DNA of 45,828 bases from Candidatus Schekmanbacteria bacterium (GCA_016188575.1 JACPHN010000083.1:1-45828); one strand, 5' to 3'; numbered from the stretch's first letter, positions 6,171 to 45,717 are shown. Notes: generated by a model not told the origin, from the sequence alone. Numbers and translations are program-made.

Positions 6171-7961
6171 ATGGCTGAGTACGACAGGAACCTGCCGCAA
6201 GTCTTTCTCGACCGCGTCTCGCGCATGCCCGATCGCACCGCTTTCCGCTTCAAGGAGCGCGGGGCATGGAAGGACGTTTCGTGGCACGACGCCGGCTCCA
6301 TTGCGGAGGAGATCGCCGCGGGGCTTATCATACGCGGCTTGCTCCCCGGGGACAAGGTGGCGCTCCTGGCTCAGACCCGGTATGAATGGGTGTTATGCGA
6401 CCTCGGTGCTCTCATGGCGGGAGCGGTGACTGTTCCCATCTACCCGTCGAACACCACGGCGCAGACCGCGTACATCCTCGGGGACAGTGACTGCCGGTTC
6501 GTTTTCTGCGATAACCGCGCGCAGCTCGACAAGGTCGCGCGCGGTCACGACGCGCTCCCCCACTTGCAGCTCGCCGTCATGATGGCGCCGGAAGCGCCGG
6601 TAGCCTGGACGACAACGCTCGAACACCTGCGCGAGGAGGGCGGAAACGCTCCCGAATCGGTCCGCACCGAGCTTCGGGCGCGTATCGCGGCAACCAAGCC
6701 CGACGCTCACGCTACCTATGTGTACACGTCGGGCACCACGGGGCCGCCCAAGGCAGTGATTCAGACTCACCGTAACCACGTCGCCATGACGACGAACCTC
6801 GCGCGCATCTCCGGCATAACCCCCGACGACGTCGAGCTCATCTATCTCCCCTTGGCGCATTCCTTTGCGCGCTGCCTGGAGTTCAATCACATCGCCACTG
6901 GTCACGTGTTGGCTTTTGCCGAATCCATCGACAAGGTAATCGACAATCTCCAGGAAGTGCGGCCGACCGTCATGGGCAGCGTGCCGCGAATCTTCGAGAA
7001 AGCGCAGATCGCCATCGCGGAAAACGCCCAGGCCGGGTCGCCGGTGAAGGCACGTCTTTTTCAGTGGGCGCTGTCCGTTGGGCTGGACTATCGGGAACGG
7101 CAGCGCGAGCACCGTCCTATTTCTCTGGCCCTCGCCGCGCAGCATGCGCTCGCCGACCTGTTGGTCTTCTCACAGATCAGAGCGCTCTTTGGCGGGCGCA
7201 TTCGCTTCTTCGTCGCCGGCGGCGCTCCGCTGGCTCCCGACTTGGGGCGGTTTTTCCATGCGACCGGACTGCTGATTCGTGAGGGGTACGGTCTGACGGA
7301 GACCTGCCCGGCAACCCACATGAATCGCGAGGACGCGTTCAAGTTCGGCACTGTCGGCCCGGCGATCCCCGGCGTCGAGGTGCGCATCGCCGACGACGGG
7401 GAAATCCTGGTGCGAGGTCCCAACGTTTCGCAGGGCTACTTGGGCAAACCCGAGGCTACCGCAGAGGCGTTCGATGCCCGCGGATGGCTGCACACGGGTG
7501 ACGTCGGCGAGCTCGACGAGGAAGGTTTCCTGCGCATTACGGACAGGAAAAAGGACATCATCGTGACCTCGGCGGGGAAGAACATCGCCCCGCAAAACAT
7601 CGAGAACCTCTTGCGGGCTCATCGCCTCATTGGGCAGGCGCTGGTGTACGGAGACCAACGGAACTACCTGACCGCACTGATTGCCCTGGACCCCGAGGGA
7701 GCGCTGGCGTTTGCCAGCCAGAAGGGGCTCGGTACCACGGACCTTCAGGAGCTAGCCGAAAACGATGCGGTTCGCGAGGCCATCGGTGCGTGCGTGCATG
7801 AGGTGAATGAACAACTCGCCTCGTTCGAAAGCATCAAGAAGTTCCGCATCTTGCCGCACGGGCTGAGTGAAGCCGAAGGCGAGCTTACGCCCACGCTGAA
7901 GCTCAGGCGAAGCGCTGTGACGCTCAAGTATATGGATTTTCTGGATGCGATGTACGAGTAG
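6171..7961 (+). CDS. long-chain fatty acid--CoA ligase (AMP-dependent synthetase/ligase)
   Basis: The AMP-binding motif 'YTSGTTGPPKAV', 'GYGLTET' and 'ITDRKKDIIVTSAGKNIAPQNIE' identify a FadD-like enzyme. Confidence 0.85.
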   Translation: MAEYDRNLPQVFLDRVSRMPDRTAFRFKERGAWKDVSWHDAGSIAEEIAAGLIIRGLLPGDKVALLAQTRYEWVLCDLGALMAGAVTVPIYPSNTTAQTAYILGDSDCRFVFCDNRAQLDKVARGHDALPHLQLAVMMAPEAPVAWTTTLEHLREEGGNAPESVRTELRARIAATKPDAHATYVYTSGTTGPPKAVIQTHRNHVAMTTNLARISGITPDDVELIYLPLAHSFARCLEFNHIATGHVLAFAESIDKVIDNLQEVRPTVMGSVPRIFEKAQIAIAENAQAGSPVKARLFQWALSVGLDYRERQREHRPISLALAAQHALADLLVFSQIRALFGGRIRFFVAGGAPLAPDLGRFFHATGLLIREGYGLTETCPATHMNREDAFKFGTVGPAIPGVEVRIADDGEILVRGPNVSQGYLGKPEATAEAFDARGWLHTGDVGELDEEGFLRITDRKKDIIVTSAGKNIAPQNIENLLRAHRLIGQALVYGDQRNYLTALIALDPEGALAFASQKGLGTTDLQELAENDAVREAIGACVHEVNEQLASFESIKKFRILPHGLSEAEGELTPTLKLRRSAVTLKYMDFLDAMYE

Positions 7962-10167
7962 GCGGTGGCGTGATTTCGGCGTGGCAGGGGCGACGGCGTT
8001 GTCGGTAGCGCTACTGCTCGCGGCATGCGCTCAGGTATCGCGACCTCCGGCGCCGGCCGCGGGGGCGTCGACTGCCGCCGAGCTTCAGGCGTTCGCTCGC
8101 ATTCTGCGGGCCGAAGACGAGCGCGCCCCAGGTGGTGGCGAGGCGGCTGTGCTGCTGCGGGATGCGCGGCCGGAGATTCGGACGCGGGCCGCCCTGGCTC
8201 TGGGCCGCATCGGCGACGGTGCGACTTCAGCGCTACTGCTCGCTTCCTTGCGTGCAGACGAGCAACCGGCGGTTCGCGCCGCGGCCGCCTTCGCGCTCGG
8301 CGAGGTGGGGGAGAGCGACGCGTACCCTGCCGAGACCGAGCAGACCGCGGAGCTCGTCGCGCAAGGGCTGGCCGCGGCGCTGGACGACGGTGAAGAGCTG
8401 GTAGCGGCGCGCGCCGCGGAAGCTTTAGGGAAACGCGGGACGACGAGCACACTGCCGGCTCTGCTCGGGCATGCCGGCGGTTCCGCGGTGCAGCGCCGGC
8501 GCGCGGTGCTGCTGGCGCTGTGGCGGGTGAACATTCCGGATGACGACGCGGCGCTCCACCGCCGTCGCTCCGAGGTACTGGCGGCGGCGGCGCGCGCTCC
8601 CGAGCGCGAGGTGCGTTGGGCTGCCGGCTATTCGCTCATGAGGCTCGCTGAACCGGACATGATTTCCGCGCTGCTCGCTTTGGCGAGAGACGCCGACCCG
8701 GGGATTCGCGCGCTTGCCGCGGCGGGCCTCGGTCGCGTTCCGGCTTCCAGCGAGCCCGCGGGTTCGGACACCGTCGAGCCGGCTATGCTCACGGCTCTGG
8801 CGGATCAGGACGCTCACGTCCGGGTCGCGGCGATCCGTTCGCTCGGCCGGCGGCCGACGGCATCTGGCTTCACGGCGCTCGCCCGGCTGCTTGCCGACGC
8901 CAACCGCCATGTCTTGCGAGCGACCGTTGTGGCGCTGGGACGCGCTGCACCGGCAATCCGCAAGGACCTCACCGCCGAAATGACGGCGCCGGTCGTCGCG
9001 CGACTCAAAGCCATGATCGCCGCCCCGCCGTCACTGCCGGAAACTCAGGAAGCGGCAACCAGCATCGCACAGGTTCTCGGACCGGAGTCGCGACCGTACT
9101 GGCGCGAGCTGGCCACGAGCGAGGTGGCATCAGCTCGGCTCGCCGCGGCCGCCGGGCTGTCGGCATTGGGTAAGGACGGAGACATCGGCGAGCTTCTCGG
9201 GCTGGTTCAGGACGCGGACCCCGGTGTCGCCATGCAGGCCATGGACGGTATCACGGCGACTTTGGGGAGGAGCTCGACGGTGCCGGCCGAAAAGGCAACA
9301 GCGAATGGCCTTATGAACCTCTTTTCGAGCCGTAACCGCGAGGGGCGCGGCGCCGCTATCGGGATGCACCGGCGGCTACGGGACGACAATCCGTATGTGC
9401 GTGCCGCGGCCACCGCCGCGCTTGCCAAACTCGACCACGAGGACGTTGCGGCGTTCATCTTCGAGGCCCTCGAGCGGGCGCACGCCGATGCGGAGCCGGA
9501 TGCGAAGACGGCAGCTTTCGAGGCGCTTGCCGAGGTCACTCTCGGTGATGGCGATCGGGTCACCGCGGAAACTCTCGCGCGACGGGCACTCGGTGAGGAC
9601 GAAAACTACCTCGTGCGGCGTGCGGCCGCTCGCTTCCTGGCGCATCTCGGGGTGCCCGCGGTGGCGGACGCCCGTCCGGTCCGCGTCGGGCGCTCCCTGC
9701 AGGACTACGCGGCGCTGCTCGCCGCTCCGCGGTCGCAGCTTCGCCTCGCCACGTCCGCGGGTGATATCGTCGTCCGCTTGCTGCCTGGCGATGCGCCGAT
9801 CACGGTCGCGAATTTCGTCCGTCTCGCCCGCGCACGGTATTTTGACGGCCAAGTTTTCCACCGCGTGGAGCCGTCGTTCGTGGTCCAGGGGGGAGATCCT
9901 GAAGGCACCGGCTGGGGCGGTCCGGGATTCAGTCAGCGCTGCGAGGTGAACGGCGTGCCGTTTACCCGTGGCACAGTTGGCATGGCGCTGTCCGGCAAGG
10001 ATACCGGCGGCAGCCAGTTCTTCATTGCGCACACACCTCAACCACATCTGGACGGCGGCTACACGGTTTTTGGTCAGGTGGTCTCGGGAATGGATGTTGT
10101 CGATCGCCTGAATCCCGGCGACAGGATCCTGCGCGTTTCCGTCGAGGATGACTCTACAGGAAGGTGA
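7945..10167 (+). CDS. HEAT/PBS-lyase-repeat lipoprotein with C-terminal cyclophilin-type peptidyl-prolyl isomerase domain
   Basis: Signal peptide with lipobox 'LLLAAC'. The central region is Ala/Leu-rich HEAT-like repeats. The C-terminus ('FHRVEPSFVVQGGDPEGTGWGGPGF...GGSQFFIAHTPQPHLDGGYTVFGQVVSGMDVV') matches a cyclophilin PPIase. Confidence 0.75.
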   Translation: MRCTSRRWRDFGVAGATALSVALLLAACAQVSRPPAPAAGASTAAELQAFARILRAEDERAPGGGEAAVLLRDARPEIRTRAALALGRIGDGATSALLLASLRADEQPAVRAAAAFALGEVGESDAYPAETEQTAELVAQGLAAALDDGEELVAARAAEALGKRGTTSTLPALLGHAGGSAVQRRRAVLLALWRVNIPDDDAALHRRRSEVLAAAARAPEREVRWAAGYSLMRLAEPDMISALLALARDADPGIRALAAAGLGRVPASSEPAGSDTVEPAMLTALADQDAHVRVAAIRSLGRRPTASGFTALARLLADANRHVLRATVVALGRAAPAIRKDLTAEMTAPVVARLKAMIAAPPSLPETQEAATSIAQVLGPESRPYWRELATSEVASARLAAAAGLSALGKDGDIGELLGLVQDADPGVAMQAMDGITATLGRSSTVPAEKATANGLMNLFSSRNREGRGAAIGMHRRLRDDNPYVRAAATAALAKLDHEDVAAFIFEALERAHADAEPDAKTAAFEALAEVTLGDGDRVTAETLARRALGEDENYLVRRAAARFLAHLGVPAVADARPVRVGRSLQDYAALLAAPRSQLRLATSAGDIVVRLLPGDAPITVANFVRLARARYFDGQVFHRVEPSFVVQGGDPEGTGWGGPGFSQRCEVNGVPFTRGTVGMALSGKDTGGSQFFIAHTPQPHLDGGYTVFGQVVSGMDVVDRLNPGDRILRVSVEDDSTGR

Positions 10168-17716: not shown

Positions 17717-19165
17717 ATGGCGATGAGAATTCCGGCACGAGGCGCGGGGCAGGAGAGCGTTTTGGGCGCACTTGAGGGATTTCGCGCGGATGATTTGAAG
17801 TGGCGCACGGGCAAGGCATGGGCTTACGTTTTCGACGCTGGGCGCGAGGCGGAGGAGGTATGCAAGAAGGCGTATGCGGCGTATCTGTCCGAGAATGGGC
17901 TAGATCCCACGGCCTTTCCTAGCCTGCTCCGGCTGGAAAACGAGATCGTGGGAATGATGGCATCGCACCTGAACGCTGGGCCGGAGGCGGTCGGCAACTT
18001 CACGAGCGGTGGGACCGAGAGCATCATGCTTGCGGTCAAGTCGGCACGAGACTGGGCGCGTGAAAAGCACCCGGAAATCCGGGAACCCGAGATGATCTTG
18101 CCACACACCAGTCACGCCGCCTTTCAGAAGGCGGGCCACTATCTCGGAGTCCGCGGCGTGCCGGTCGCGGTCGACTCTGAAACGATGCGCGCCGATCCCG
18201 GTGCCGTGCGCGCCGCGATCACCCCCAACACGATTCTCCTGGTGGCATCGGCGACGTCGTACGCGCATGGCGTGATCGATCCCATCGGCGAAATCGCCGC
18301 GCTGGCCGCGGAGCGTGGGCTGCTCTGCCACGTCGATGGCTGCATCGGCGGATTCGTTCTGCCCTATTTCCGCAGGCTCGGAGCGCCCATTCCGGACTTC
18401 GACTTTGCGGTGCGGGGCGTCACCTCGATGTCGATTGACCTGCACAAATACGCATTTGCGGCCAAAGGGGCATCGGTCGTGCTGTATCGCAGCAAGGAGC
18501 TGCGACGCCACCAAATCTATGCGTGCTCGACGTGGACGGGCTACACGATCGTCAATCCGACCGTGCAAAGCACCAAGTCTGGGGGACCGCTGGCCGGCGC
18601 CTGGGCGGTGCTCCACTTCATCGGCGACGACGGGTATCTGGAGCTCTGCCGGCGCATGTTGGAGGCGACGCGGGAGCTGGCGGCGGGGATCGAGCGGATC
18701 GACGGGCTGCGGCTCGCCGCGCAGCCAGATGGTAACCTGCTCGCGTTTGCATCGGATACGGTGAGTGTGTTTCACATTGCAGACGAGATGACTGAGCGCG
18801 GTTGGCACGTGCAGCCCCAGCTCGCCTTCGCGGAGTCGCCCGCGACGATTCATCTGTCGGTAAACCCGAGCAACACGGCGTGGGTGCGGGAATTTCTGGA
18901 GGATCTTCGCGCCAGCGTCGCGGCGGCGCGCCTGTTGCCGCCGAGCCCGCTGGCGGCGATGGCCAAGACGGCGGTGTCGAGCCTCGCCGGCGTCGAGATC
19001 AGCGAGCAGATGATCGAGCAGCTCCTGGCGATGGTTGGGCTCCGAGACCGGGCGCTACCCAAGCGCATGGCGCCCATTCATGAGCTCATGAACGTCATCC
19101 CGCCGGAGCTGCGCAGCAAGGCGCTGATCCATTTCGCAAACGGCCTGTTCACACCGCCCCGCTAG
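17717..19165 (+). CDS. PLP-dependent group II decarboxylase-fold enzyme, sphingosine-1-phosphate lyase-like
   Basis: 'SGGTESIMLAVKSARDWAR' and the PLP-lysine motif 'SMSIDLHKYAFAAKGASVVLYR'. The latter resembles the SPL signature (S.S.D.HKYG.APKG.S..LY) more than glutamate decarboxylase. Confidence 0.7.
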   Translation: MAMRIPARGAGQESVLGALEGFRADDLKWRTGKAWAYVFDAGREAEEVCKKAYAAYLSENGLDPTAFPSLLRLENEIVGMMASHLNAGPEAVGNFTSGGTESIMLAVKSARDWAREKHPEIREPEMILPHTSHAAFQKAGHYLGVRGVPVAVDSETMRADPGAVRAAITPNTILLVASATSYAHGVIDPIGEIAALAAERGLLCHVDGCIGGFVLPYFRRLGAPIPDFDFAVRGVTSMSIDLHKYAFAAKGASVVLYRSKELRRHQIYACSTWTGYTIVNPTVQSTKSGGPLAGAWAVLHFIGDDGYLELCRRMLEATRELAAGIERIDGLRLAAQPDGNLLAFASDTVSVFHIADEMTERGWHVQPQLAFAESPATIHLSVNPSNTAWVREFLEDLRASVAAARLLPPSPLAAMAKTAVSSLAGVEISEQMIEQLLAMVGLRDRALPKRMAPIHELMNVIPPELRSKALIHFANGLFTPPR

Positions 19166-21938
19166 CGCGGCGCTCGCGCCAGGCGCCAAATGCCGCGAAA
19201 CCGCTGACCGCCAGGCTCACCGCCGCAGTCCAGGCAAGCTGAGCCGGAGTCACTGGTGCAAGCCGGAAGCTGGCCGCCAGTGGTGGGACAAATGTCAACA
19301 GCAGCGGGAGGGATACTGACGCGGCTACGACCGCCAGAAGCAGGCGCGTGTGGGCGAGGACCGGAAATCGCGGGGAGCGGTGAGCCGGGGGCCGAAGAAA
19401 GACGACGCCTGCTTGCGTCCAGCTCAGAGTGATGAGAGCAATCGCGGCTAGCTGAGGGCCATGAGCGCTGCGGCTCCACGGCGCCAGGGCCACCGTGACG
19501 GCGAAGAGCAGCCCCGCGCTTTTCCGGAGAACGGTGGAAATGAACGAGCTGTGGCGCAGACGTTCCGGGCCCGGGCGACGCCGGGTGTGCGCGGGCGGCT
19601 GCACTTCGTCGCCGAGGAGTGCCAGGCCGGGAAGCGCCGAGGAGATCAGCGCGAGCCAGATGATGTGTAGCGGGGAAAGCCGAGGGAAAAGCGGGACCAG
19701 GGGCCCGAGCGCAAGAAGGATCAGCAGTGCCACCGCCGAAGACAGCAGGTGCTGCTCGCTACGCCATCGGGCGGCGGCGCTGGCCTGAGCGATGGCCAAG
19801 GCGGCGCCGAGGGAACCGATCGAGTCGTCCAACAGCACGACGTCGGCGACCTGCCGGGCCGCATCGGTGCCGGTAGTGCCGAGCGCCACGGAGACCGGAG
19901 CGGCGGCGAGCACCGGGCGATCGGCGAGTGCACCGGAGATCACGGCCACAACCTCTCCCCGTTGCCGGAGCTGTTCGAGGATGAGGTGCTTGTGGCGCGG
20001 CTCCATGCGGGCATAGACGGCATGCGCGGCGGCCTGCTCTGGTTCGCACCCCAGGTCCGGTCCAGCGTCGAGCTGCCCTCCGGTGGTCACGGTGCCCGTC
20101 TCCCCAGGATCGCGCGCCAGCGCATCGACTGCGAGCGCGGTCCCGGGGTGCTCGCCGGTCACCAGGATCACGTCCACACCGAGGTCGGAAAGTTCGGTGA
20201 CCGCGCGCGGAGCGTCAGGTCGAGGCGGGTCCGACAGCGCGATCAGCCCGACGAAGATCAGGTCGCCGTCGGTGATATCGACGCCCGTGGGAGGAGCTGA
20301 CGTGAGAATCCTGCAGCCGACAGCGATCACTCTGAGCCCCTCCGCGGCGAACCGGTCAGCAGCAGCGAGTGAACGGACGCGCAGATCGGGGGTCATGATC
20401 TCGACGCCATGACTACCAACGGCGCTGGAGGAGAGCGAGATCAGCGTCTCGGCGGCGCCCTTGCTCAGGGCCAGCCAGTGAGTCTCGGGCCGCGGCGGCG
20501 TGCCATTCCACAACCCACGCAACCAGTGAGCCGCCGGCGGGCGGCTCAGCACTCCCCGATGGATGGTGGTAGCGCGCCGCCTGGACGCCCGCAATGGGAT
20601 CTCGGATACTCTGGGAAACACTTCTTCCAATGTCGACTTCGACAGGCCGATCCGCGCTGCCGCCTCGATGAGCGCGAGATCCGTCGGATCGCCTATGGCT
20701 TGTGCGCGATCGGAGTGAGGTCCGACGCGGCTGAGGACGGCGTCGTTGCACAGCGCCGCGCCAGCAAAGAGCAGGCGGACGAGGGGATCGGGGCTTCCGG
20801 AATCCTGGCGAGTTGCCTCGCCCTCATCGTCGCCAGCAGGCTTGTGGCCTCGCAAAGTCTCCATCGTCACGACCTTGCCGCCGAGGTATGCTGCCGCCAC
20901 AGAAAGCCTCGCCTGCGTCAGCACTCCCGTCATTGGCACGCAGACCGCCGTGACGGCGGCGAGACGTTCGAGCGCGCCGCCGTCCCGGAGCACGACGTGC
21001 CGTCGCAGCAGGCGCCGCGTCGCAATCAGGTTTGACAGGGACGACAGGTACGAGAGCGGCAACGGAATCAGGGTTGCTGCGAGGCCGAAGAGGCGATCGG
21101 TGTCCGCGCTGGAGAAGCCAGGCCACAGTCTCTCGGCGAGCAGCGTCGCGGCGATCGCCAGGCACGCCGCGGTGGCGCCCGCCCGCACGAGCAGCTCAGG
21201 GCGCAACGACGGCCGGAGGAGCTCGACACCGGGATCGCATCGCGGGATTTCCTGGGCGACCTGGCCACGACCAGGTGAAACGCAGACGGCTTCCGCCCAG
21301 CCGGAGAGCACGACGTGACCGCAAGGTATGAGGCTGTCGCTGCCCGGCGTGAAGACGGCAGCGGGGTCGCCGTCGGCCTCATCTTGGGTGGGGGGAGCCG
21401 GAGCCGCGGCCGGCGGCGGGACGAGGCGCAGCCCCACGTGCGAGACGATCCGACAGTCCGCGGGGATGACGCTTCCTGAGACGAGCAGGATGATGTCTCC
21501 AGGCACAAGCTCGCGCGCCGCCACCCTTCGGACCTTGCCGGCGCGCCGCAGCATGGCGGCTGGATCTACCAGAGGGCGCACGGCCGCCCTCGTCCTGGCG
21601 TCCAGGCGATAGCTGACGGCCGCTGCGCCCTGGGCCAGAAGGATCACCGACGCCATCATGTACCCCGTGAGCGTGTCGCCCCGCAACGCGCAGGCGAATG
21701 CGATGGCGAAGAGTGACAGAACTTCAGGGCCCAGCCCCCACCCGGCGGCCAGCGCGGAAAGCCGCGCAGCGCTCAGAATCCCCGATACCCGCTTGGAGCG
21801 TCGTTGCTTTCGCGCGCGAGCCTGCTCCTCGGAGAGGCCAGTAGCGGGATCCGCGCCCAGACTCGTGAGGAGGTCCTGCAGAGCCGGGGTGGTCGTGGTG
21901 GGCTCGGGTCTAGCGTCGCTCAATATCGCTCCAATCAC
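19149..21938 (-). CDS. P-type ATPase homologue (type II, Cation_ATPase_N) with degenerate catalytic motifs - probable pseudo-ATPase
   Basis: Overall P-type ATPase architecture is present (N-terminal 'LSEEQARARK', conserved 'KGAAETL' in the N domain, 10 TM-like segments). However DKTGTLT is replaced by 'PMTGVLT' (phospho-Asp lost), TGDN by 'TGEH', GDGVNDAP by 'SGALADRP', and the TGES and PEGL regions are not recognisable. Confidence 0.7.
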   Translation of the reverse strand: MIGAILSDARPEPTTTTPALQDLLTSLGADPATGLSEEQARARKQRRSKRVSGILSAARLSALAAGWGLGPEVLSLFAIAFACALRGDTLTGYMMASVILLAQGAAAVSYRLDARTRAAVRPLVDPAAMLRRAGKVRRVAARELVPGDIILLVSGSVIPADCRIVSHVGLRLVPPPAAAPAPPTQDEADGDPAAVFTPGSDSLIPCGHVVLSGWAEAVCVSPGRGQVAQEIPRCDPGVELLRPSLRPELLVRAGATAACLAIAATLLAERLWPGFSSADTDRLFGLAATLIPLPLSYLSSLSNLIATRRLLRRHVVLRDGGALERLAAVTAVCVPMTGVLTQARLSVAAAYLGGKVVTMETLRGHKPAGDDEGEATRQDSGSPDPLVRLLFAGAALCNDAVLSRVGPHSDRAQAIGDPTDLALIEAAARIGLSKSTLEEVFPRVSEIPLRASRRRATTIHRGVLSRPPAAHWLRGLWNGTPPRPETHWLALSKGAAETLISLSSSAVGSHGVEIMTPDLRVRSLAAADRFAAEGLRVIAVGCRILTSAPPTGVDITDGDLIFVGLIALSDPPRPDAPRAVTELSDLGVDVILVTGEHPGTALAVDALARDPGETGTVTTGGQLDAGPDLGCEPEQAAAHAVYARMEPRHKHLILEQLRQRGEVVAVISGALADRPVLAAAPVSVALGTTGTDAARQVADVVLLDDSIGSLGAALAIAQASAAARWRSEQHLLSSAVALLILLALGPLVPLFPRLSPLHIIWLALISSALPGLALLGDEVQPPAHTRRRPGPERLRHSSFISTVLRKSAGLLFAVTVALAPWSRSAHGPQLAAIALITLSWTQAGVVFLRPPAHRSPRFPVLAHTRLLLAVVAASVSLPLLLTFVPPLAASFRLAPVTPAQLAWTAAVSLAVSGFAAFGAWRERRASGAV

Positions 21939-22131
21939 GTGTCACATCTCGGTGAACACGCTCGAATTGTCTCGCGAAATCGTGACACGCGCAAATCGCG
22001 TCGGATAATAGCCGTGTCGAAGCGCGAGCGCTCGGGCTGCAGCGGGTGTGTCCTTTTCGTGTCACGGGCCAGTTCCTCCTCGGTACGGCTTCACAGCGCC
22101 GGGACGCGATCGGGAAGCACGTGCATACTAT

Positions 22132-22153
22132 CACAATCTTGGCATTGATTGTG
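22132..22153. promoter_or_regulatory. perfect 7-bp inverted repeat CACAATC-N8-GATTGTG in the AT-richer divergent intergenic region
   Basis: Direct read. It lies in the 450-bp region between the divergent P-type-ATPase-like gene and the PhnD-like gene. Confidence 0.4.
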
Positions 22154-22385
22154 CATCCGGAGTGGCATGATTGCGGTGTGAGGTCACTGCAGTTACCGGC
22201 AGAAGCGGCGAGGGTGGAACTGGAACCTCCCAATCCTCGTGACCAGAGACGACACCTCCTTAGGCTCTATCCTCTCCTGACGTCAATCCTGGGCCGCCCT
22301 CGCCCTGCCGGTCTTTGCGGCCACGTTAGTTCCCTGTCCGCCGTGCCCGTGGCGCTGACCACGCAATCGCTGTAGGCTGCCGCAC

Positions 22386-23348
22386 ATGCGAGTGAGGCGC
22401 GAGCATGGCGGCGGGACAATGCGGCGAGCGGTCGGGCTCTTGTTGGCCGCCGGCGCGGTCCCGCTTGTGCTCCTGTCGGTTGCGCACCGCTCCCGTGCGG
22501 AGGGCATCCCTCCGTCCCCCGAGACTTGCCGCTCCAGTATCGTCTACTACTATCCTGACAGCATCGGTCGGGAGCATGCAGAGATCGCGGGAAGAATCGT
22601 CAAGGTCGTCGAGGGGCCGTTGTCGGCGGCTCTGGGAAAGCACCTGACCGGGTACTATTTTTCTCGGCGCAAGGACCTGGTGGCACAAATAGCTCACTGC
22701 CAGCGGCTCGGCGCTTTCCCCGTGGGCGGCATGATGCACGCGGAGACGGCACTCGAGTACCGCAATTTATGGCACCTGGAGGTGCTGGGGTATTCGGTCG
22801 CGCTCTCGACAGGCGCGAAGCAGACGATCAACGTAGCGGTGCGGCGTGGTAGCGGCCTGCGACGCCTACAGGACCTGCGCGGCCGCACCTTGCTGACGCC
22901 GGAGTTCTGGGACGTGAAATCTCCGCGACCGACGACCATCGTCTTTGCCGGCGCGCTTTCCCTTGCGGACTTCGCCGAAGTAAACGAGACCCCCTCGTCG
23001 ATCAGCGCGCTCACGGGTCTGGCCTTTCGCCAGGCCGACGCGATCCTGGTATCTAACCGCGTGTTCGAGGTCTTCAAGGAGCGATCGCCGAAACTGTGGG
23101 CGACCATTCAGTCCATTCACGAGTCGCAGCCCATTCCACTGAATCTGCTGGTCGGCTTCGGCGCGCTAAGCGCGCGCGAGCGCGAGGTGCTCGAGAAGAC
23201 GTGGGAGATCATCAATACCTCGTCGGAAGGCCGGGAAGCGCTCGAGTATTTGCGGATCGACCACATGGCGGCCGGCGGCTGGTCGGACGTCTACGATGAA
23301 GATGATCTGGCCACGAGCGCAAAAGGCATCGACGAGGGTCACCTCTAA
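22386..23348 (+). CDS. secreted PhnD/SsuA-like (type-2 periplasmic binding fold) substrate-binding protein, paralogue A
   Basis: Signal peptide (possible start at 22419, MRRAVGLLLAAG). It aligns along its whole length with the 33113-34072 product ('IVYYYPDSIGREHAEIAGRI' vs 'IVYYFPDTVGKDLSKIASNF'; 'LVAQIAHCQRLGAFPVGGMMHAETALEYRNLWHLE' vs 'LVAHMTDTLARKQLPVFAAMHAEVALENRHLWNLE'). Confidence 0.55.
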   Translation: MRVRREHGGGTMRRAVGLLLAAGAVPLVLLSVAHRSRAEGIPPSPETCRSSIVYYYPDSIGREHAEIAGRIVKVVEGPLSAALGKHLTGYYFSRRKDLVAQIAHCQRLGAFPVGGMMHAETALEYRNLWHLEVLGYSVALSTGAKQTINVAVRRGSGLRRLQDLRGRTLLTPEFWDVKSPRPTTIVFAGALSLADFAEVNETPSSISALTGLAFRQADAILVSNRVFEVFKERSPKLWATIQSIHESQPIPLNLLVGFGALSAREREVLEKTWEIINTSSEGREALEYLRIDHMAAGGWSDVYDEDDLATSAKGIDEGHL

Positions 23349-23446
23349 CCAGCGGGGCGGCGGACCTGCCCCGGCGGCCACTCGGCTTGACGAGCATGCG
23401 GTAAAGGCACAAGCATGAGAAGACGGTTTTTCGAAAGCGGATTCGC

Positions 23447-25525
23447 ATGATCGGCGGTGCGTCCATCATGAGCGGTCGACATGGGAAAGGGGTGCTTTGC
23501 ATGAACAGCGCGGCGGGAACCGGTGTCGATGGCCGTGTCGGGACGGCGCCGTCTTGCCGCACTCCGCGGCAAAACCTGTGCGCCAGTGGACTGGGCACGG
23601 CGCTCGTCAGCCTCGCCGTCCTTTGCGCCGTCTGCGCGGTCACTCGCCTGGCGCCCGCCAGCGCCGTTGAGCCTTTTTTTGCTCCCGCCGTGCCGATGGG
23701 GACGCTTGCGATCCGGCTCCAACCGACCGCCGCCGTCGCGCCTGGAGCCCCGGTCCTGATTACCTTCGGAGTGCCATTCCCACGCGGTTCGCTCACGGCC
23801 GAAGCGATTGGCACGGTGCGCGTCCTGGCGGCTGGCGAGGAGCGCCCCGCCCATGTCGACGCGCTCACGCTCTGGCGCCACGCCACCAATGCGGCGGTCG
23901 ACGGCGCTTCGATCCGGGTCATCCGGGTCCAGCTCGAGCACGCGTTCGCGACGAGCTACCCCGCCTCCGAGGAGATCTCGCTCGAGTGGGGCCAGGCCCC
24001 ACGGACCAAGGACGTTGCGGAGCTCGCGGATCCCCGCACCGCCTGGCACCTCGTCACCGACGGCACGACCCCCTCCGGCGGCATCACGTTCGACGCCAGC
24101 CACCAGGTTTGGGAGCCCGACGTTTACGCCGTGCTCCCCAAGGCGTGGCTCTCCGCTAGCGGCCTCAAGACCCCGATGCAGCCGCTAGACGGCGGCGTCA
24201 GCGAGCTGCGCATGGAGCCCTCGGCCGCCGCCGCTTCCTACCCCGGCCATCTCGAGGCCGACCATGCTCAGGTCAACTTCTTCTACTCGATTATCAATGA
24301 CGACGACCTCCTCGTCGGGCCGGTCGATTATGACAATACCAATGCGTTCACCAGCGATTACGAACCGTGGCTCTACGATCGCGCGATGGCACTGTACGTG
24401 GGCTACCTGCGGAGCGGATTCTTCCGGTTCTTGCGCGAGGCCGTCCGCAACGCCGAGTTCTATCGAACGAAGATCTACACGCCTGCGGCGTGCGATGACG
24501 GGCCCTGTGTCGGCAGCTTCTCGATGAAGAATCCCGATCCGGCGGCGGGCTGGCATGACGAAAAATACTCCTACAACGAATCTCTTGCCATGACGTACTG
24601 GCTCACCGGCGACGCCGCCGCCCTGCCGTACGTCGAGTACGTGACGCGGATCTACGACGGGGTGTCCACGGTGGCCTCCTCCAGTGCTTTTACCGAGCGG
24701 CACGCGGGGCTCAAGTTGATGTCCCGCGTCGTTGCCTACGAGGTTACCGGCGGGGAGCAATATAGAGATGAGATGGCGCAGATCATCGCGGATTTCCGAG
24801 CCGGGCAGACCAACCCGTACGGTGGCCTCGCCGACGGCGGGCTGTGGCACTCGATCGCGGCGCACGAAGGGGTCGAATCGACGGAGCCGATTACCTCACC
24901 TTGGATGTCGGCCCTGATCGGCGACGCGGCGGCTCGGGCGTATCTGGTGAGCGAGCACGTGGACGCCGCGCGGCTCATCATCGAGCTCGCGACTCACCAG
25001 TGCGGCGCTGGCGGGTACTGGACGACGATTCGTGACGGTGAGAATGGGCTAGACGAACAAAGCGGTGAAGCTCCGCTGTTCTTCCCTCACTACCTGGCAA
25101 CGCGAGACGGGCTCGGCTGGAGCGACGACTTCAACCCCTATACCGATTACGAACATTCCTTCGACGTGGCGGGCACGGTCGCCTGGGGGACGTACTTCGC
25201 GCGGTTGAGCGGCGAGGCACAGGCGAGTGAGCAGCTTCGGACGTGTGCGGAGGACCTCTATACGACCTTCAGCCACACGATCACCTACTGGACCCGACCC
25301 GGTGGGCCGGCCGCGAACAAGGACGGATTCCGGGTCGTACCCCACCGCAAGTACTCGTGGTGGTTCAAGAACGCCAGCGGTTTTCAGTGGGCGATGGCGA
25401 GCTCGGAGGGGCCGGCGGTCCCGATCGCCTACCCATTTGCCGCAAGCGTCGTCCTGGGCCTGACGGTGTGTCGGCGTCGCGGTGGGGTGGCCGGCCGCCG
25501 GTCGGCGAGTGGCGGCGACCGCTGA
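23447..25525 (+). CDS. large hypothetical secreted protein with C-terminal hydrophobic anchor plus Arg-rich tail
   Basis: N-terminal signal 'LGTALVSLAVLCAVCAVTRLAPASA'. The C-terminus '...VPIAYPFAASVVLGLTVCRRRGG...' resembles a C-terminal sorting/anchor signal (TM helix followed by RRR). The start is uncertain (candidate Mets at 23447, 23468 and 23501). Confidence 0.5.
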   Translation: MIGGASIMSGRHGKGVLCMNSAAGTGVDGRVGTAPSCRTPRQNLCASGLGTALVSLAVLCAVCAVTRLAPASAVEPFFAPAVPMGTLAIRLQPTAAVAPGAPVLITFGVPFPRGSLTAEAIGTVRVLAAGEERPAHVDALTLWRHATNAAVDGASIRVIRVQLEHAFATSYPASEEISLEWGQAPRTKDVAELADPRTAWHLVTDGTTPSGGITFDASHQVWEPDVYAVLPKAWLSASGLKTPMQPLDGGVSELRMEPSAAAASYPGHLEADHAQVNFFYSIINDDDLLVGPVDYDNTNAFTSDYEPWLYDRAMALYVGYLRSGFFRFLREAVRNAEFYRTKIYTPAACDDGPCVGSFSMKNPDPAAGWHDEKYSYNESLAMTYWLTGDAAALPYVEYVTRIYDGVSTVASSSAFTERHAGLKLMSRVVAYEVTGGEQYRDEMAQIIADFRAGQTNPYGGLADGGLWHSIAAHEGVESTEPITSPWMSALIGDAAARAYLVSEHVDAARLIIELATHQCGAGGYWTTIRDGENGLDEQSGEAPLFFPHYLATRDGLGWSDDFNPYTDYEHSFDVAGTVAWGTYFARLSGEAQASEQLRTCAEDLYTTFSHTITYWTRPGGPAANKDGFRVVPHRKYSWWFKNASGFQWAMASSEGPAVPIAYPFAASVVLGLTVCRRRGGVAGRRSASGGDR

Positions 25526-25604
25526 GCGGGTCGGCGCGCAGGCGCAGCCGGCCGCTGCCGTACAGCGAAAAGGCATCGCGTCGCTCCTGGCTCGCCGCGT
25601 GAAA

Positions 25605-25643
25605 CTGTTCACCTCTGCCCCGCACGCGGGGGGGAGGTGAACA
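25605..25643. repeat. GC-rich palindromic intergenic element, copy 2 (CTGTTCACCTCTGCCCCGCACGCGGGGGGGAGGTGAACAG)
   Basis: Same outer CTGTTCACCT/AGGTGAACAG inverted repeat and G-run hairpin as copy 1. It sits between two convergent gene ends. Confidence 0.7.
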
Positions 25644-25649
25644 GCTACG

Positions 25650-27356
25650 TCACGGCTGTGGGGCGCCACCGCCTCCATGCCGGCGGCGCCGGCGTGGAGC
25701 CGTGATCTCCAGCGTCTTGATCCGGCTGACGAGCCCCGTACGCGGCACGCCGAGGCGCTCGGCGGCCCACGTGACATTGCCGCCGCACTCGCCGATTGCC
25801 TGTTCGATCAGGCCGCGTTCATTGTCGTCCAGGCGCGCTCTGGCATCCTGCAGCGATCTCCACGAAGCGGCGACGTCGAGCGCGCCCGCGGCAGGTGCCG
25901 GAGACTCGCTCACCGCCTCGGCGCGGTCCTGGTCCGCGTCCGTGCTTTCCACCAGGCCGGTGAAGTGCCGGGGTTCAAGCAACCGGTCTTGCTGATCTTC
26001 GCGCAGACACCGGGCAACGGCGGTGTCGAGCGCTTTCTGCAGGGAGCGGAAGTTGCCCGGCCACATCAGCTCGGGCCCGGCGAGGAAGCGTCGAAGTGCC
26101 GGAGAAAGTGACCACGAGGCTTCCGTGCCGCGGCTCCGCAGATAGCGTTCTGCCAGCGCGGGGACATCCTCGCGTCGCTCGCGCAGCGACGGGAGCCGCA
26201 CGACCACCCCGCTGATGCGATCGTAGAGATCCTGGCGCAGCACCCGATCGCGCACCGCCTGCGCCACGTCGCCATTGGTGGCGGCGATGATGCGGACATC
26301 CGAGCGACACGGAACCGGCCGGTTCCAGCCGAGCGGTTCGTAGGTGCCGTCCTGCAAGAAATCGAGGAGCAGCGGTTGAATCTGTATGGGCAAGTTCAGG
26401 ATCTCGTCGAAAAAGATCGTTCCGCCCTGAGCCAGCGCCACCTTTCCGGGGCGATCGCTCGCGGCACCGGTGAAGGAGCCTTTGACGTGTCCGAACAGCT
26501 CGCTGCGAACCGTGTTCAGATCATCTCCGTGGCCGAGGTTGACGCGCACGAATGGCGTGGCGCGGTGGCTCGCGCGGCCGATGGCTCGCGCTAGCAGGGT
26601 CTTTCCGGTGCCAGGCTCGCCCGCGATAAAAATCGGGATGTCCGTCTGGACGACCGGCATGAGCGTGCGGCGAATGGCTGCCATCGAGCTCGGCGCCAGG
26701 GCATCGGCGAGGGACGTGCTGGAAAACGAGCCAGCCTCGCCTTCGGTGCCTTCCGTGGCGAGGGCAGAAGCGGTGGCGGCGCGGCCATGCCTGCGGATTT
26801 GTTCGTGATGCGTGATGACCAGGGAGAGAATGTCACAGGCGGTCTCGAACAACTCCAGGTCGCGCTCGCGTATTTCGCGATCAGCCGAGCGCAGGTCGAT
26901 GTAGGCGACGCCGCGCACCTGTGCCTTCGGTGCGTCGTCGCCGGGTGCGGCGGCCACGCCCGCGTCGCTCCGACGCACCAGGAACAAGGGCCCCGCAAGC
27001 GCATCGGTTATGCCAAATTCCGAATAGCTCCCCGATGGCATCCGCCGGTCGTGAAGGTCGTGGACGATCTGGCCGGTATCCAGAACGCGCTGGACGATGG
27101 TTCGGCTCACCTGTGCCTGCTCGAGCTGGGTGAGACGTCGGCGCAGCCTTCTTCCATGCACCGGGACGGGCACACCATCGTCGCCGATATAGTAGAGCAC
27201 ACCGCGGTCGGCGCCCGTGGCGTCGACCAGTAGATCCAGACACTCGGCGAGCACGGCGTCGAGATCGAGTATCCGCACGACCTGCCGGGTGAACTCGCGC
27301 AGTGCTGCCCAGGGGCCCTCCAAGTCGGAATCGTCCAGTCTAAGCAGTCCATCCAT
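25650..27356 (-). CDS. sigma-54-dependent transcriptional activator (GAF - AAA+ sigma-54 interaction - Fis-type HTH)
   Basis: Walker A 'GEPGTGKTLLARAIG', an 'ELFGHVKGSFTGA' (GAFTGA-like) loop, and C-terminal HTH 'GGNVTWAAERLGVPRTGLVSRIK'. Start set at the internal 'MDGLLRLDD' Met because upstream codons of the 698-aa ORF are low-complexity. The coordinate is ±1-2 nt. Confidence 0.8.
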   Translation of the reverse strand: MDGLLRLDDSDLEGPWAALREFTRQVVRILDLDAVLAECLDLLVDATGADRGVLYYIGDDGVPVPVHGRRLRRRLTQLEQAQVSRTIVQRVLDTGQIVHDLHDRRMPSGSYSEFGITDALAGPLFLVRRSDAGVAAAPGDDAPKAQVRGVAYIDLRSADREIRERDLELFETACDILSLVITHHEQIRRHGRAATASALATEGTEGEAGSFSSTSLADALAPSSMAAIRRTLMPVVQTDIPIFIAGEPGTGKTLLARAIGRASHRATPFVRVNLGHGDDLNTVRSELFGHVKGSFTGAASDRPGKVALAQGGTIFFDEILNLPIQIQPLLLDFLQDGTYEPLGWNRPVPCRSDVRIIAATNGDVAQAVRDRVLRQDLYDRISGVVVRLPSLRERREDVPALAERYLRSRGTEASWSLSPALRRFLAGPELMWPGNFRSLQKALDTAVARCLREDQQDRLLEPRHFTGLVESTDADQDRAEAVSESPAPAAGALDVAASWRSLQDARARLDDNERGLIEQAIGECGGNVTWAAERLGVPRTGLVSRIKTLEITAPRRRRRHGGGGAPQP

Positions 27357-27463
27357 AGCCGCAACGCTACTACGGTCGCCTGACCGCGTCAATGTTTGGC
27401 CAGCCCGCGAGCGGGCGGAGGAACGGCATACGCGCTCGGAAAAGACGGATGCCGCTTGCTGTC

Positions 27464-27493
27464 CCGCCTCCCCCCGCTTGCGGGGGAGGGGCG
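27464..27493. repeat. GC-rich palindromic element, copy 3 (core only: CCGCCTCCCCCCGCTTGCGGGGGAGGGGCGGG)
   Basis: Shares the CCTCCCCCCGCTTGCGGGGG core and lacks the TGAACAG flanks. Confidence 0.55.
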
Positions 27494-27712
27494 GGCGGCG
27501 GCGGGCTCGCCGTTCTTCCCCTCTCCCAGTCTCCGCCCAGTGAGCGGAGGATGGTCTTGCGCGTTGCCACTGCTCATCCGGGCGCTTGTCGGAAGGGACG
27601 GGGGGACGCTGTCGCGTCGACGTCGAACAGGCGGAGAATTCAGGAAGCCGCCAGGGGTTGCATTCGGCTTGCAACCTTGCTACAGTAAGTGGCCGACTTG
27701 CATCGCTGACTT

Positions 27713-27786
27713 CGGGGCGTGGCGCAGCTTGGTAGCGCACTAGCATGGGGGGCTAGGGGTCGTGGGTTCGAATCCCGCCGCCCCGA
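27713..27786 (+). tRNA. tRNA-Pro (anticodon GGG)
   Basis: Manual fold gives a 7-bp acceptor stem (CGGGGCG/CGCCCCG), U8, D-arm GCGC/GCGC with a GG loop, a 5-bp anticodon stem CTAGC/GCTAG with loop A-T-GGG-G-G, a 5-nt variable loop, T-arm GTGGG-TTCGAAT-CCCGC and discriminator A. No encoded CCA. Confidence 0.85.
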
Positions 27787-27797
27787 CTCAGGAAAAG

Positions 27798-27829
27798 GCC
27801 GTAACGGTGAACGTTACGGCGTTTTTTTT
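27798..27829 (+). terminator. rho-independent terminator (GCCGTAACG-GTGAA-CGTTACGGC followed by T8)
   Basis: A perfect 9-bp stem, 5-nt loop and a run of eight T directly downstream of the tRNA. Confidence 0.85.
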
Positions 27830-28093
27830 GGGGCGGCGAACGGCGAGTTTCGTTCGACACAGCTTCAAGGCAGGCGCGGATTGCCCCATCGCGCACTACG
27901 CGGAGCGGTCATTCCAAGTTGCTCATCTCCTCGGACGAAACCGGACATTCAGCCGGCGCCGAGTTCTCCGTTTTTCCGCCACTGGCGAGATCGACCAAGA
28001 CGGTCTACATTCACGCCCGAGCCTGGTCGCGCCCAGCCCCGCCGATTCCCTCGCGGGATCGCCCGCCGAACTGTTCAGGAGAAAACACCAGAG

Positions 28094-44537: not shown

Positions 44538-44682
44538 TTCGGGCCGATCAGCCGAAATCGGCACGACAAGCGCATCGCGTGCATTGACCGCGCGGCTGGG
44601 CGACCTTACATTAAGCTCAGCGGAAGCGGTCAGCGGCTATCCTGCAGCATTCTAGTGATTGACACGCGAAAGGAGCGTGCTG

Positions 44683-45717
44683 ATGATCCAGAGCGAGGTG
44701 ACCTACCGAGAAATGAACCGCAGCAGGCATGTCGAGGAAGCGGTTGAACGCGCTCGGGACCGGCTCGAGAGGTTGCTCCCTCACGTCGTGAAGTCGGAGA
44801 TCGCGACGTTGCGCACGATGGTGCAGCGATGTTCGCGTGGCATTTTCGAAGTGTCCGTGAGCCTGCGCCTGCCTCGACGATCGTTCTACGTTCATGAAGA
44901 GGGCCACGACGTGGACGGGCTCGTCAACGAAGTCCTGAACGAGCTCTTGCAGCGTGCCCGCAAATTCAAGAGCCGCCGCGCCGAGCGCACGGGGGTTGCT
45001 GTCGACCAGGAGCTCCGCAGCGAGAACACGGAGAGCAACGTCGGGCGCCGGACGTCGCACGATACCGGGGAACTGTGGATCGACTCGCAGGACCGCAGCG
45101 AGATCAATCAACTCATCGAGGATGCGATTGGGCGACTGAAGGAGTTTATCGAGCGGCGCCTGATCCATCACGGGCTGATCCTGGAACGCCTCGGGGAAGG
45201 ACGCGCCATGGCTATCCTCGACGAGGCCGTCGCTACCGCCCTGGAGACGCTCCCCGCCAAGCCGGTCCACCTGCCGGTGCGGGCGTGGCTCTACAAGAAA
45301 GCCTCCGACGCCTGCGATGCGTGGGTGGCGCGCACCGCGGACGCCAGCGCGGACAGCGTTTCGGTCGACGAGCGGGCGACGTTCGCTTCCATCATCGAGC
45401 GCATGCAGGATGCCGGCACCGAGATGCTCGACTTCTGGCAGCCCGACGAAGAGCCGCATGCTGAAGACGTCTTGGGTGATCCGAACAGCACCAATCCTGA
45501 GGAGCTCGTTGGCGGGCTGGAGCTGGAGCGGCTGCTGATGAGCAAGCTCGAGCATCTTCCCGAGCTGGAACGTGACGTCGTCGTCCTGGCGATGTTGGAA
45601 GACCTCCCCATTGATGAGATCGCCGAGCTGCGGGGTTTGACCCCCGACGAGGTCACCGGGCTGCTGTCGCGCGCGAAGGACCAGCTCCGGACGTATTTTC
45701 GCGAAGTCACCGCGTGA
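44683..45717 (+). CDS. fusion protein: N-terminal ribosome-hibernation-factor (HPF/RaiA, S30AE)-like domain + C-terminal sigma-70 region-4 (ECF-type) domain
   Basis: AGGAG Shine-Dalgarno site 7 nt upstream. The N-terminus 'MIQSEVTYREMNRSRHVEEAVERARDRLERLL...FEVSVSLRL...VHEEGHDVDGLVNEVLNELLQRARKFKSRR' follows the HPF pattern (H.ve.s.alre....K..kl...........v.L......a......DmYaAID...dkL.rQl.K.K.K). The C-terminus 'LPELERDVVVLAMLEDLPIDEIAELRGLTPDEVTGLLSRAKDQLR' is a classic region-4 HTH. Confidence 0.55.
   Translation: MIQSEVTYREMNRSRHVEEAVERARDRLERLLPHVVKSEIATLRTMVQRCSRGIFEVSVSLRLPRRSFYVHEEGHDVDGLVNEVLNELLQRARKFKSRRAERTGVAVDQELRSENTESNVGRRTSHDTGELWIDSQDRSEINQLIEDAIGRLKEFIERRLIHHGLILERLGEGRAMAILDEAVATALETLPAKPVHLPVRAWLYKKASDACDAWVARTADASADSVSVDERATFASIIERMQDAGTEMLDFWQPDEEPHAEDVLGDPNSTNPEELVGGLELERLLMSKLEHLPELERDVVVLAMLEDLPIDEIAELRGLTPDEVTGLLSRAKDQLRTYFREVTA

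Follow-up and report, generated by a model that had tools for sequence, protein, structure and literature searches.

The DNA considered here is a stretch of 45,828 nucleotides (nt) from Candidatus Schekmanbacteria bacterium (GCA_016188575.1, JACPHN010000083.1:1-45828), referred to below as the window, and its subject is a minus-strand gene at 19149..21938 encoding a homologue of the P2A-type Ca2+-ATPases that, judged from its altered motifs, would no longer work as a pump. As recognized from the open reading frame (ORF), the Pfam matches and an alignment to the Listeria Ca2+-ATPase LMCA1, the coding sequence is intact: it runs uninterrupted for 929 codons when counted from a GTG at 21938. The product recorded at NCBI comprises 924 amino acids (aa), begins at a TTG at 21923, and is named 'MAG: cation-transporting P-type ATPase [Candidatus Schekmanbacteria bacterium]' (MBI2568010.1). 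The TTG appears the likelier of the two starts, because a putative Shine-Dalgarno-like GGAG (21929..21932, minus strand) precedes it with a spacer of 5 nt. An earlier statement that the gene is intact and free of frameshifts holds, as the frame is open and a tblastn comparison with 12 relatives detected no colinear out-of-frame similarity and hence no compensated frameshifts. The guanine-plus-cytosine (GC) content of the gene is 0.776 at third and 0.56 at second codon positions, and this codon-position pattern resembles that of the neighboring genes.

Assignment of the protein to a family is firm at the superfamily level, which is as far as Pfam and NCBIfam place it. Specifically, the Pfam models E1-E2_ATPase, Cation_ATPase (the nucleotide-binding, or N, domain), Hydrolase, and Cation_ATPase_C all score above their gathering thresholds, and the superfamily model TIGR01494 of NCBIfam reaches 97.8 bits against a cutoff of 62.3, while the subfamily models remain far below theirs (PMR1-type, 182 against 798 bits; SERCA-type, 134 against 703 bits). 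The nearest solved relatives found by phmmer are LMCA1 (E=4e-52), followed by SPCA1, SERCA, and Na,K-ATPase. The structure predicted by AlphaFold2 from an alignment of 33 sequences reaches a mean predicted local distance difference test (pLDDT) score of 72.9 and a predicted template modeling score of 0.75 and shows 10 transmembrane (TM) helices, in agreement with the TM architecture attributed to the protein earlier. Confidence within the model is high for the phosphorylation (P) and N domains, where means over blocks of 10 residues mostly exceed 80 and reach 95; it is low at residues 177-200, 224-266, and shorter segments including 365-380. In a Foldseek comparison with the PDB, SPCA1a, Na,K-ATPase, and SERCA in E1-nucleotide-bound (E1-ATP-type) states matched the model with TM-scores of 0.75-0.80. 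Taken together, these data identify the protein as a full-length P2A (SERCA/PMR1/LMCA1-like) homologue with actuator (A), P, and N domains and ten TM helices.

Lost catalytic and ion-site motifs

P-type ATPases are defined by aspartyl-phosphate chemistry, and the fate of the residues that carry this chemistry was followed in an alignment with the 112 closest full-length relatives (113 sequences) and in a phmmer alignment to LMCA1. In the latter, CVPMTGVLTQ of the present protein stands opposite CTDKTGTLTQ, LVTGEHPGTA opposite MITGDHKTTA, and ISGALADRPVL opposite TGDGVNDAPAL. The phosphorylation motif DKTGT therefore reads PMTGV (aa 335-339; 20922..20936, minus strand, as are all features of the gene), with the substitutions D335P, K336M, and T339V, such that the phosphorylatable Asp is now a Pro; no DKTG exists elsewhere in the protein, the whole of which was scanned. 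The P-domain motif TGD has become TGE through D596E (aa 594-596; 20151..20159), and the Mg2+-site motif TGDGVND has become ISGALAD (aa 667-673; 19920..19940) through T667I, G668S, D669G, and N672A, leaving only the last Asp, the equivalent of SERCA D707.

The losses extend to the A domain and the membrane. In the A-domain loop (aa 174-205; 21324..21419), the TGES motif is replaced by a Pro/Ala-rich segment, PPPAAAPAPPTQDEADGD..., with AAPA at the TGES position itself (residues 178-181 in the 113-sequence alignment), and the loop is modeled with a pLDDT below 50. The M4 motif PEGL reads PLPL (aa 292-295; 21054..21065), a change that retains the helix-breaking Pro and removes, by E293L, the Ca2+-liganding Glu equivalent to SERCA E309. 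In the M5-M6 region (aa 723-768; 19635..19772), the Ca2+ ligands have given way to Ala or Ser (N735A, N763A, T766S, D767S, G768A), and the membrane-path equivalents of SERCA E309, N768, N796, T799, and D800 are without exception Leu, Ala, or Ser. Also replaced is the Glu of the 'N-x-G-E' motif conserved in M5 of the relatives, which we take to correspond to SERCA E771.

In SERCA-type pumps the residues lost here are the phosphorylated nucleophile, the Mg2+ and phosphate ligands, the dephosphorylation catalyst, and the Ca2+ sites. Because the nucleophile, the Mg2+/phosphate residues, TGES, and the Ca2+ residues are all gone, established P-type ATPase chemistry implies that the protein should be able neither to form an aspartyl-phosphate intermediate nor to occlude a cation. 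Of the functional features of a working pump, which were checked in turn, only the nucleotide-site residues of the N domain are present. In its account of the motifs, the preliminary description was thus largely accurate: the changes of DKTGT to PMTGV, TGD to TGE, and GDGVND to SGALAD were seen in both alignments, the possibility that the motif positions had been misassigned is answered by the same alignments and by the lack of an intact DKTG, and the conclusion that no Post-Albers cycle can be run is borne out by the family chemistry given these losses. Its assertion that every catalytic signature is mutated is correct in that all those named are substituted, and incomplete in that TGES, the Glu of PEGL, and the M5/M6 ligands had been missed.

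Against this background of loss, the N domain (aa 353-560; 20259..20882) is, by alignment and model, the best-preserved part of the protein. It retains GDPT, R443, E446, P448, R453, R455, K493-G494 within KGAAE (aa 493-497, the KGAxE motif whose retention had been pointed out earlier), and R536, with the conservative changes F449L, K454R, and E420D; the GDPT(E) motif is kept as GDPT(D). The 113-sequence alignment has 175 columns with conservation of 95% or more, and the entire protein keeps 83 of them (47%). At columns conserved to at least 90%, retention is distributed unequally among the domains: identity and similarity are 76% and 95% in the N domain, 55% and 82% in the second half of the P domain, 50% and 60% in the A domain, 40% and 63% in the phosphorylation-site segment, and only 24-29% and 48-57% in the membrane segments (M1-M2, M3-M4, and M5-M10). 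The difference in retention between the N domain and the rest is significant (Fisher p = 2.6e-4), and of the 69 hydrophobic columns conserved to at least 90%, 56 have remained hydrophobic, compared with a background frequency of 32%. The unequal retention suggests that the nucleotide-binding domain has been constrained the most and the membrane domain the least.

Relatives and the case for selection

In a word-indexed search, all 119 of the other proteins listed carry DKTG and the best identity is 32%; an exhaustive phmmer search of 1.84 billion cluster representatives gave no match above approximately 35% identity except the protein itself; and scans of GTDB genomes and JGI metagenomes yielded only matches of 26-31%. 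The nearest neighbors by tree distance among 141 sequences are likewise ordinary, motif-intact pumps. Besides the protein itself, its 90% cluster has a single other sequence, P0390. This comes from run SRR12113422 as assembled in Logan, and its contig matches positions 18965-27631 of the window at 8666 of 8667 nt and encodes the same 924-aa product save for H651R. Because a single nucleotide in 8667 separates the two copies, the ratio of non-synonymous to synonymous substitution rates (dN/dS) has no power here.

With a probability of about 0.6, these data are read here as describing a free-standing pseudo-enzyme that arose from a P2A-type Ca2+-ATPase of bacteria, is maintained by selection, and does not pump. 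The alternative that fares best is that the gene is a non-functional relic, a P2A gene that is drifting and has stayed open by luck or was inactivated recently, and whose product has no role. Neutral decay was simulated from the coding sequence of the gene with its conserved columns reset to consensus, allowing substitutions only; since insertions and deletions (indels) were left out, the test is conservative, and its GC-periodicity output was not used because the simulated ancestor had been built from the gene's own codons. Decay to 47% retention required approximately 0.37 substitutions per site and produced a mean of 10 in-frame stop codons, and in none of 400 runs did the frame remain open. 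Conserved hydrophobic columns keep their character in 38 of 46 cases, compared with 29.7 +/- 3.2 in the simulation. Moreover, the approximately 16 lineage-specific indels of the gene (counted against columns with an occupancy of at least 90% or at most 10%; control average, approximately 2.5) are all multiples of three. Neither a broken frame nor a uniform neutral pattern, the marks of a pseudogene, was found. An open frame in spite of such erosion, in-frame indels, domain-specific retention, and a Shine-Dalgarno site argue against random decay, as does the intact codon-position GC pattern, and uniform drift predicts neither the unequal retention among domains nor the kept hydrophobic character. 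Neutral decay thus appears unlikely, and it is somewhat probable that selection maintains the frame and the cytoplasmic fold but not catalysis or ion binding.

Several observations nonetheless weigh against a selected pseudo-enzyme, and a number of them favor a relic. Firstly, no orthologue or paralogue above approximately 35% identity was found; the protein stands as a singleton lineage, and the usual demonstration of a pseudo-enzyme, its conservation in other species, is missing. Secondly, the protein forms the longest terminal branch of the 141-sequence distance tree and is the most eroded of these sequences. Thirdly, relaxed constraint in a high-GC genome would give the same Ala/Arg/Pro/Gly-rich composition and the same low-complexity loop, the Pro/Ala-rich segment at the former TGES site. 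Additionally, the only single-nucleotide difference between the two assemblies, H651R, is non-synonymous and adjoins the retained K650. In the N domain the adenine-stacking Phe is a Leu, so that nucleotide binding is not assured. In a broader, more diverse alignment the retention of this domain shrinks to 0.62, which the second half of the P domain equals, and that of the membrane segments is again lowest, at 0.25-0.29, such that the direction of the pattern is the same and its strength less. Finally, no operon partner, riboswitch, or conserved synteny points to a role. Even with these points in its favor, the relic is regarded as the distinctly less probable account.

An improbable further alternative is that the protein still transports, either by passive conduction of an ion or small molecule or through a non-canonical chemistry that dispenses with the aspartyl-phosphate cycle. 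The ten TM helices and the Pro kink retained in M4 are compatible with such a role, and P-type pumps can be converted to channels, as exemplified by the palytoxin-bound Na,K-ATPase structure, which is among the Foldseek matches. However, Leu, Ala, or Ser has taken the place of every polar and acidic residue of the pathway. The membrane segments are under less constraint than any other region, with retention of 24-29%, the reverse of what would be expected of a conserved permeation path, and no substrate-related genes are found nearby. The earlier suggestion of a channel is accordingly weakened by the loss of every polar and acidic ligand from a membrane core that is also the least constrained region. 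That the motif losses stem from errors of sequencing, assembly, or gene calling or from a chimeric contig, a concern raised by the origin of the sequence in a metagenome-assembled genome, is effectively refuted by the agreement of the independent Logan assembly, by homology that is colinear, in one frame, and full length, and by a composition matching that of the neighboring genes.

Gene neighborhood and other features of the window

The ATPase-homologue gene is monocistronic. Its 3' end overlaps by 17 nt, as the coordinates require and as had been stated previously, that of a convergent plus-strand gene (17717..19165) encoding a pyridoxal phosphate (PLP)-dependent decarboxylase resembling sphingosine-1-phosphate lyase, an assignment drawn from Pfam and NCBIfam matches and from JGI names. 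JGI homologues of this PLP enzyme are named sphinganine-1-phosphate aldolase or glutamate/tyrosine decarboxylase-like, and thousands exist at approximately 60-65% identity, the closest at 63-65%. Two contexts were examined for synteny by way of the PLP enzyme, and these were unrelated and had no adjoining ATPase. On the other flank, across a 447-nt spacer, lies a divergent gene for a Phosphonate-bd-type periplasmic binding protein. This gene (22386-23348) has a paralogue at 33113-34072 (both plus strand), and neither was seen to have an ABC permease or ATPase gene next to it. Also nearby in the window are a TetR regulator, a sigma-54 activator, and unrelated enzymes.

With regard to regulatory elements, an Rfam search of positions 21850-22450 detected no riboswitch or leader RNA, and elsewhere in the window it detected a tRNA only. 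No sigma-70-like promoter was found on the strand of the ATPase-homologue gene, and sigma-54-like matches upstream of it did not exceed chance. The tRNA gene (27713-27786, plus strand; 57.9 bits in Rfam) overlaps both the 5' end of the sigma-54 activator ORF (25650-27746, minus strand) and the listed start of the ORF at 27719-29245. Because of this overlap, and because the ornithine carbamoyltransferase (OTCase)-like domains of the latter begin at aa 147, its true start probably lies further downstream.

Three further genes of the window, all on the plus strand, are of note in their own right. The gene at 34192-36714 encodes an 840-aa protein resembling the major vault protein, here in a bacterium, with matches to MVP_shoulder (E=6.9e-30) and Vault_3 in Pfam. 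The gene at 44659-45717 encodes a 352-aa protein that joins an N-terminal S30AE/sigma-54-modulation (hibernation-factor) domain to a C-terminal sigma-70 region 4, and that at 7945-10167 encodes a 740-aa protein composed of multiple HEAT repeats and a C-terminal cyclophilin-type peptidyl-prolyl isomerase domain. The GC content of the window is 63-71%, and the named close homologues of the PLP enzyme belong to Myxococcota, Deltaproteobacteria, or unclassified bacteria; the Candidatus Schekmanbacteria label of the bin may deserve a check.

A presumably non-pumping homologue beside known systems

Overall, the preliminary description stands in its view of an intact homologue that is dead as a pump, and falls short in that the loss is wider than it stated; the protein is, in addition, probably under selection. 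Its proposal of a sensor or scaffold receives modest support, because the nucleotide-binding domain is well kept. Were the selected pseudo-enzyme to act in this manner, the protein would be anchored in the membrane, its N domain might still bind nucleotide without hydrolysis, and it might act by way of its conformation or of contacts with other proteins, serving as a pseudo-ATPase with a regulatory or scaffold role and not as a transporter; each of these steps is proposed with low confidence. In its most specific form the idea is tentative: a P2A scaffold may have been repurposed under selection into a nucleotide-binding membrane sensor or scaffold that lies at the extreme of an undescribed spectrum of degenerate P2-type proteins in uncultivated bacteria.

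Evidence for such a spectrum comes from the best 150 matches of the exhaustive phmmer search, from which other degenerate homologues were picked. P0163 carries EKTGV, ISGNAND, and ADD, P0135 carries EKTGV, and P0182 carries DKTAV, while P0180 has TGE and is without the M5/M6 ligands; ion-site and/or GDGxND losses are seen in P0180, P0221, P0224, P0147, and P0205. Both P0163 and P0180 are found without change in several samples, and a third degenerate homologue has three cluster members. Where loci were retrieved (L008-L013), a PLP aminotransferase gene precedes the P0163 gene at a distance of 8 nt, and the gene of P0180 lies downstream of proB/proA-like genes. In the 141-sequence comparison, the degenerate homologues keep 0.64-0.88 of the conserved columns, compared with 0.49 in the present protein and 0.93-0.99 in six sampled ordinary pumps. 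These metagenomic ATPases thus share the superfamily neighborhood of the protein, are less eroded, and are not specifically related to it. A common origin with P0163, P0135, P0182, and P0180 was considered and rejected, given distance ranks of 18-121 and two examined gene contexts that differ from that of the protein, and the pairing of the protein with P0180 by neighbor joining may reflect long-branch attraction. A profile search begun from five aligned degenerate homologues retrieved generic, motif-intact Ca2+-ATPases only and no dead family. On the strength of these comparisons, the protein may represent the extreme case of a recurrent and undescribed degeneration of P2-type ATPases. Separately, nine of the matched proteins (P0140, P0144, P0154, P0157, P0168, P0231, P0249, P0252, and P0408) are 1400-1700 aa long with the ATPase match in the C-terminal half, and may be fusions or tandem pumps.

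To our knowledge, pseudo-enzymes have been well studied among kinases, phosphatases, and proteases and hardly at all among primary ion pumps. No stand-alone, dead bacterial P-type ATPase was found in the literature searched, an absence that applies to that library and is not proof, and a term search of a review of open questions in the P-type ATPase field returned no inactive, degenerate, or pseudo-pumps (PMC10654040). If the reading as a selected pseudo-enzyme is true, the protein would be a bacterial example that stands alone and has preserved both the fold and the N domain, implying that the scaffold of a pump can be reused for a non-transport role, and would constitute a natural 'all-motifs-off' construct with which to ask what the N domain and the membrane body do alone. 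In addition, homology-based annotation over-calls a transporter here, as the NCBI name attests, and probably does so for other degenerate homologues as well.

In comparison with the working LMCA1, SERCA, and SPCA/PMR1 pumps, the protein has the same domain order, ten TM helices, and TM-scores of 0.75-0.80. It shares with them the N-terminal 'GLSxxEA', the LVPGD...PAD.R strands of the A domain, GDPT, KGA, DPPR, and TG.H..TA, as well as K650 at the position of SERCA K684. It differs from these pumps in lacking the phosphorylated Asp, TGES, the Asp of TGD, the GDGxND site, and the Ca2+ ligands, and in an identity of at most approximately 35%.

The closest precedent found is provided by the P4-ATPase-like modules of the guanylate cyclases of alveolates and stramenopiles, in which DKTGT and the Glu motif of the A domain are altered or lost, as described for Cryptosporidium, P4GC-beta, gregarines, and Tetrahymena (PMC13466520). 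Those modules are eukaryotic, belong to the P4 (flippase) group, are fused to an output cyclase, and are conserved across lineages, whereas the protein described here is bacterial, derived from P2A, stand-alone, and without known orthologues. What the two have in common is that the fold of a P-type ATPase has persisted despite the alteration or loss of its motifs.

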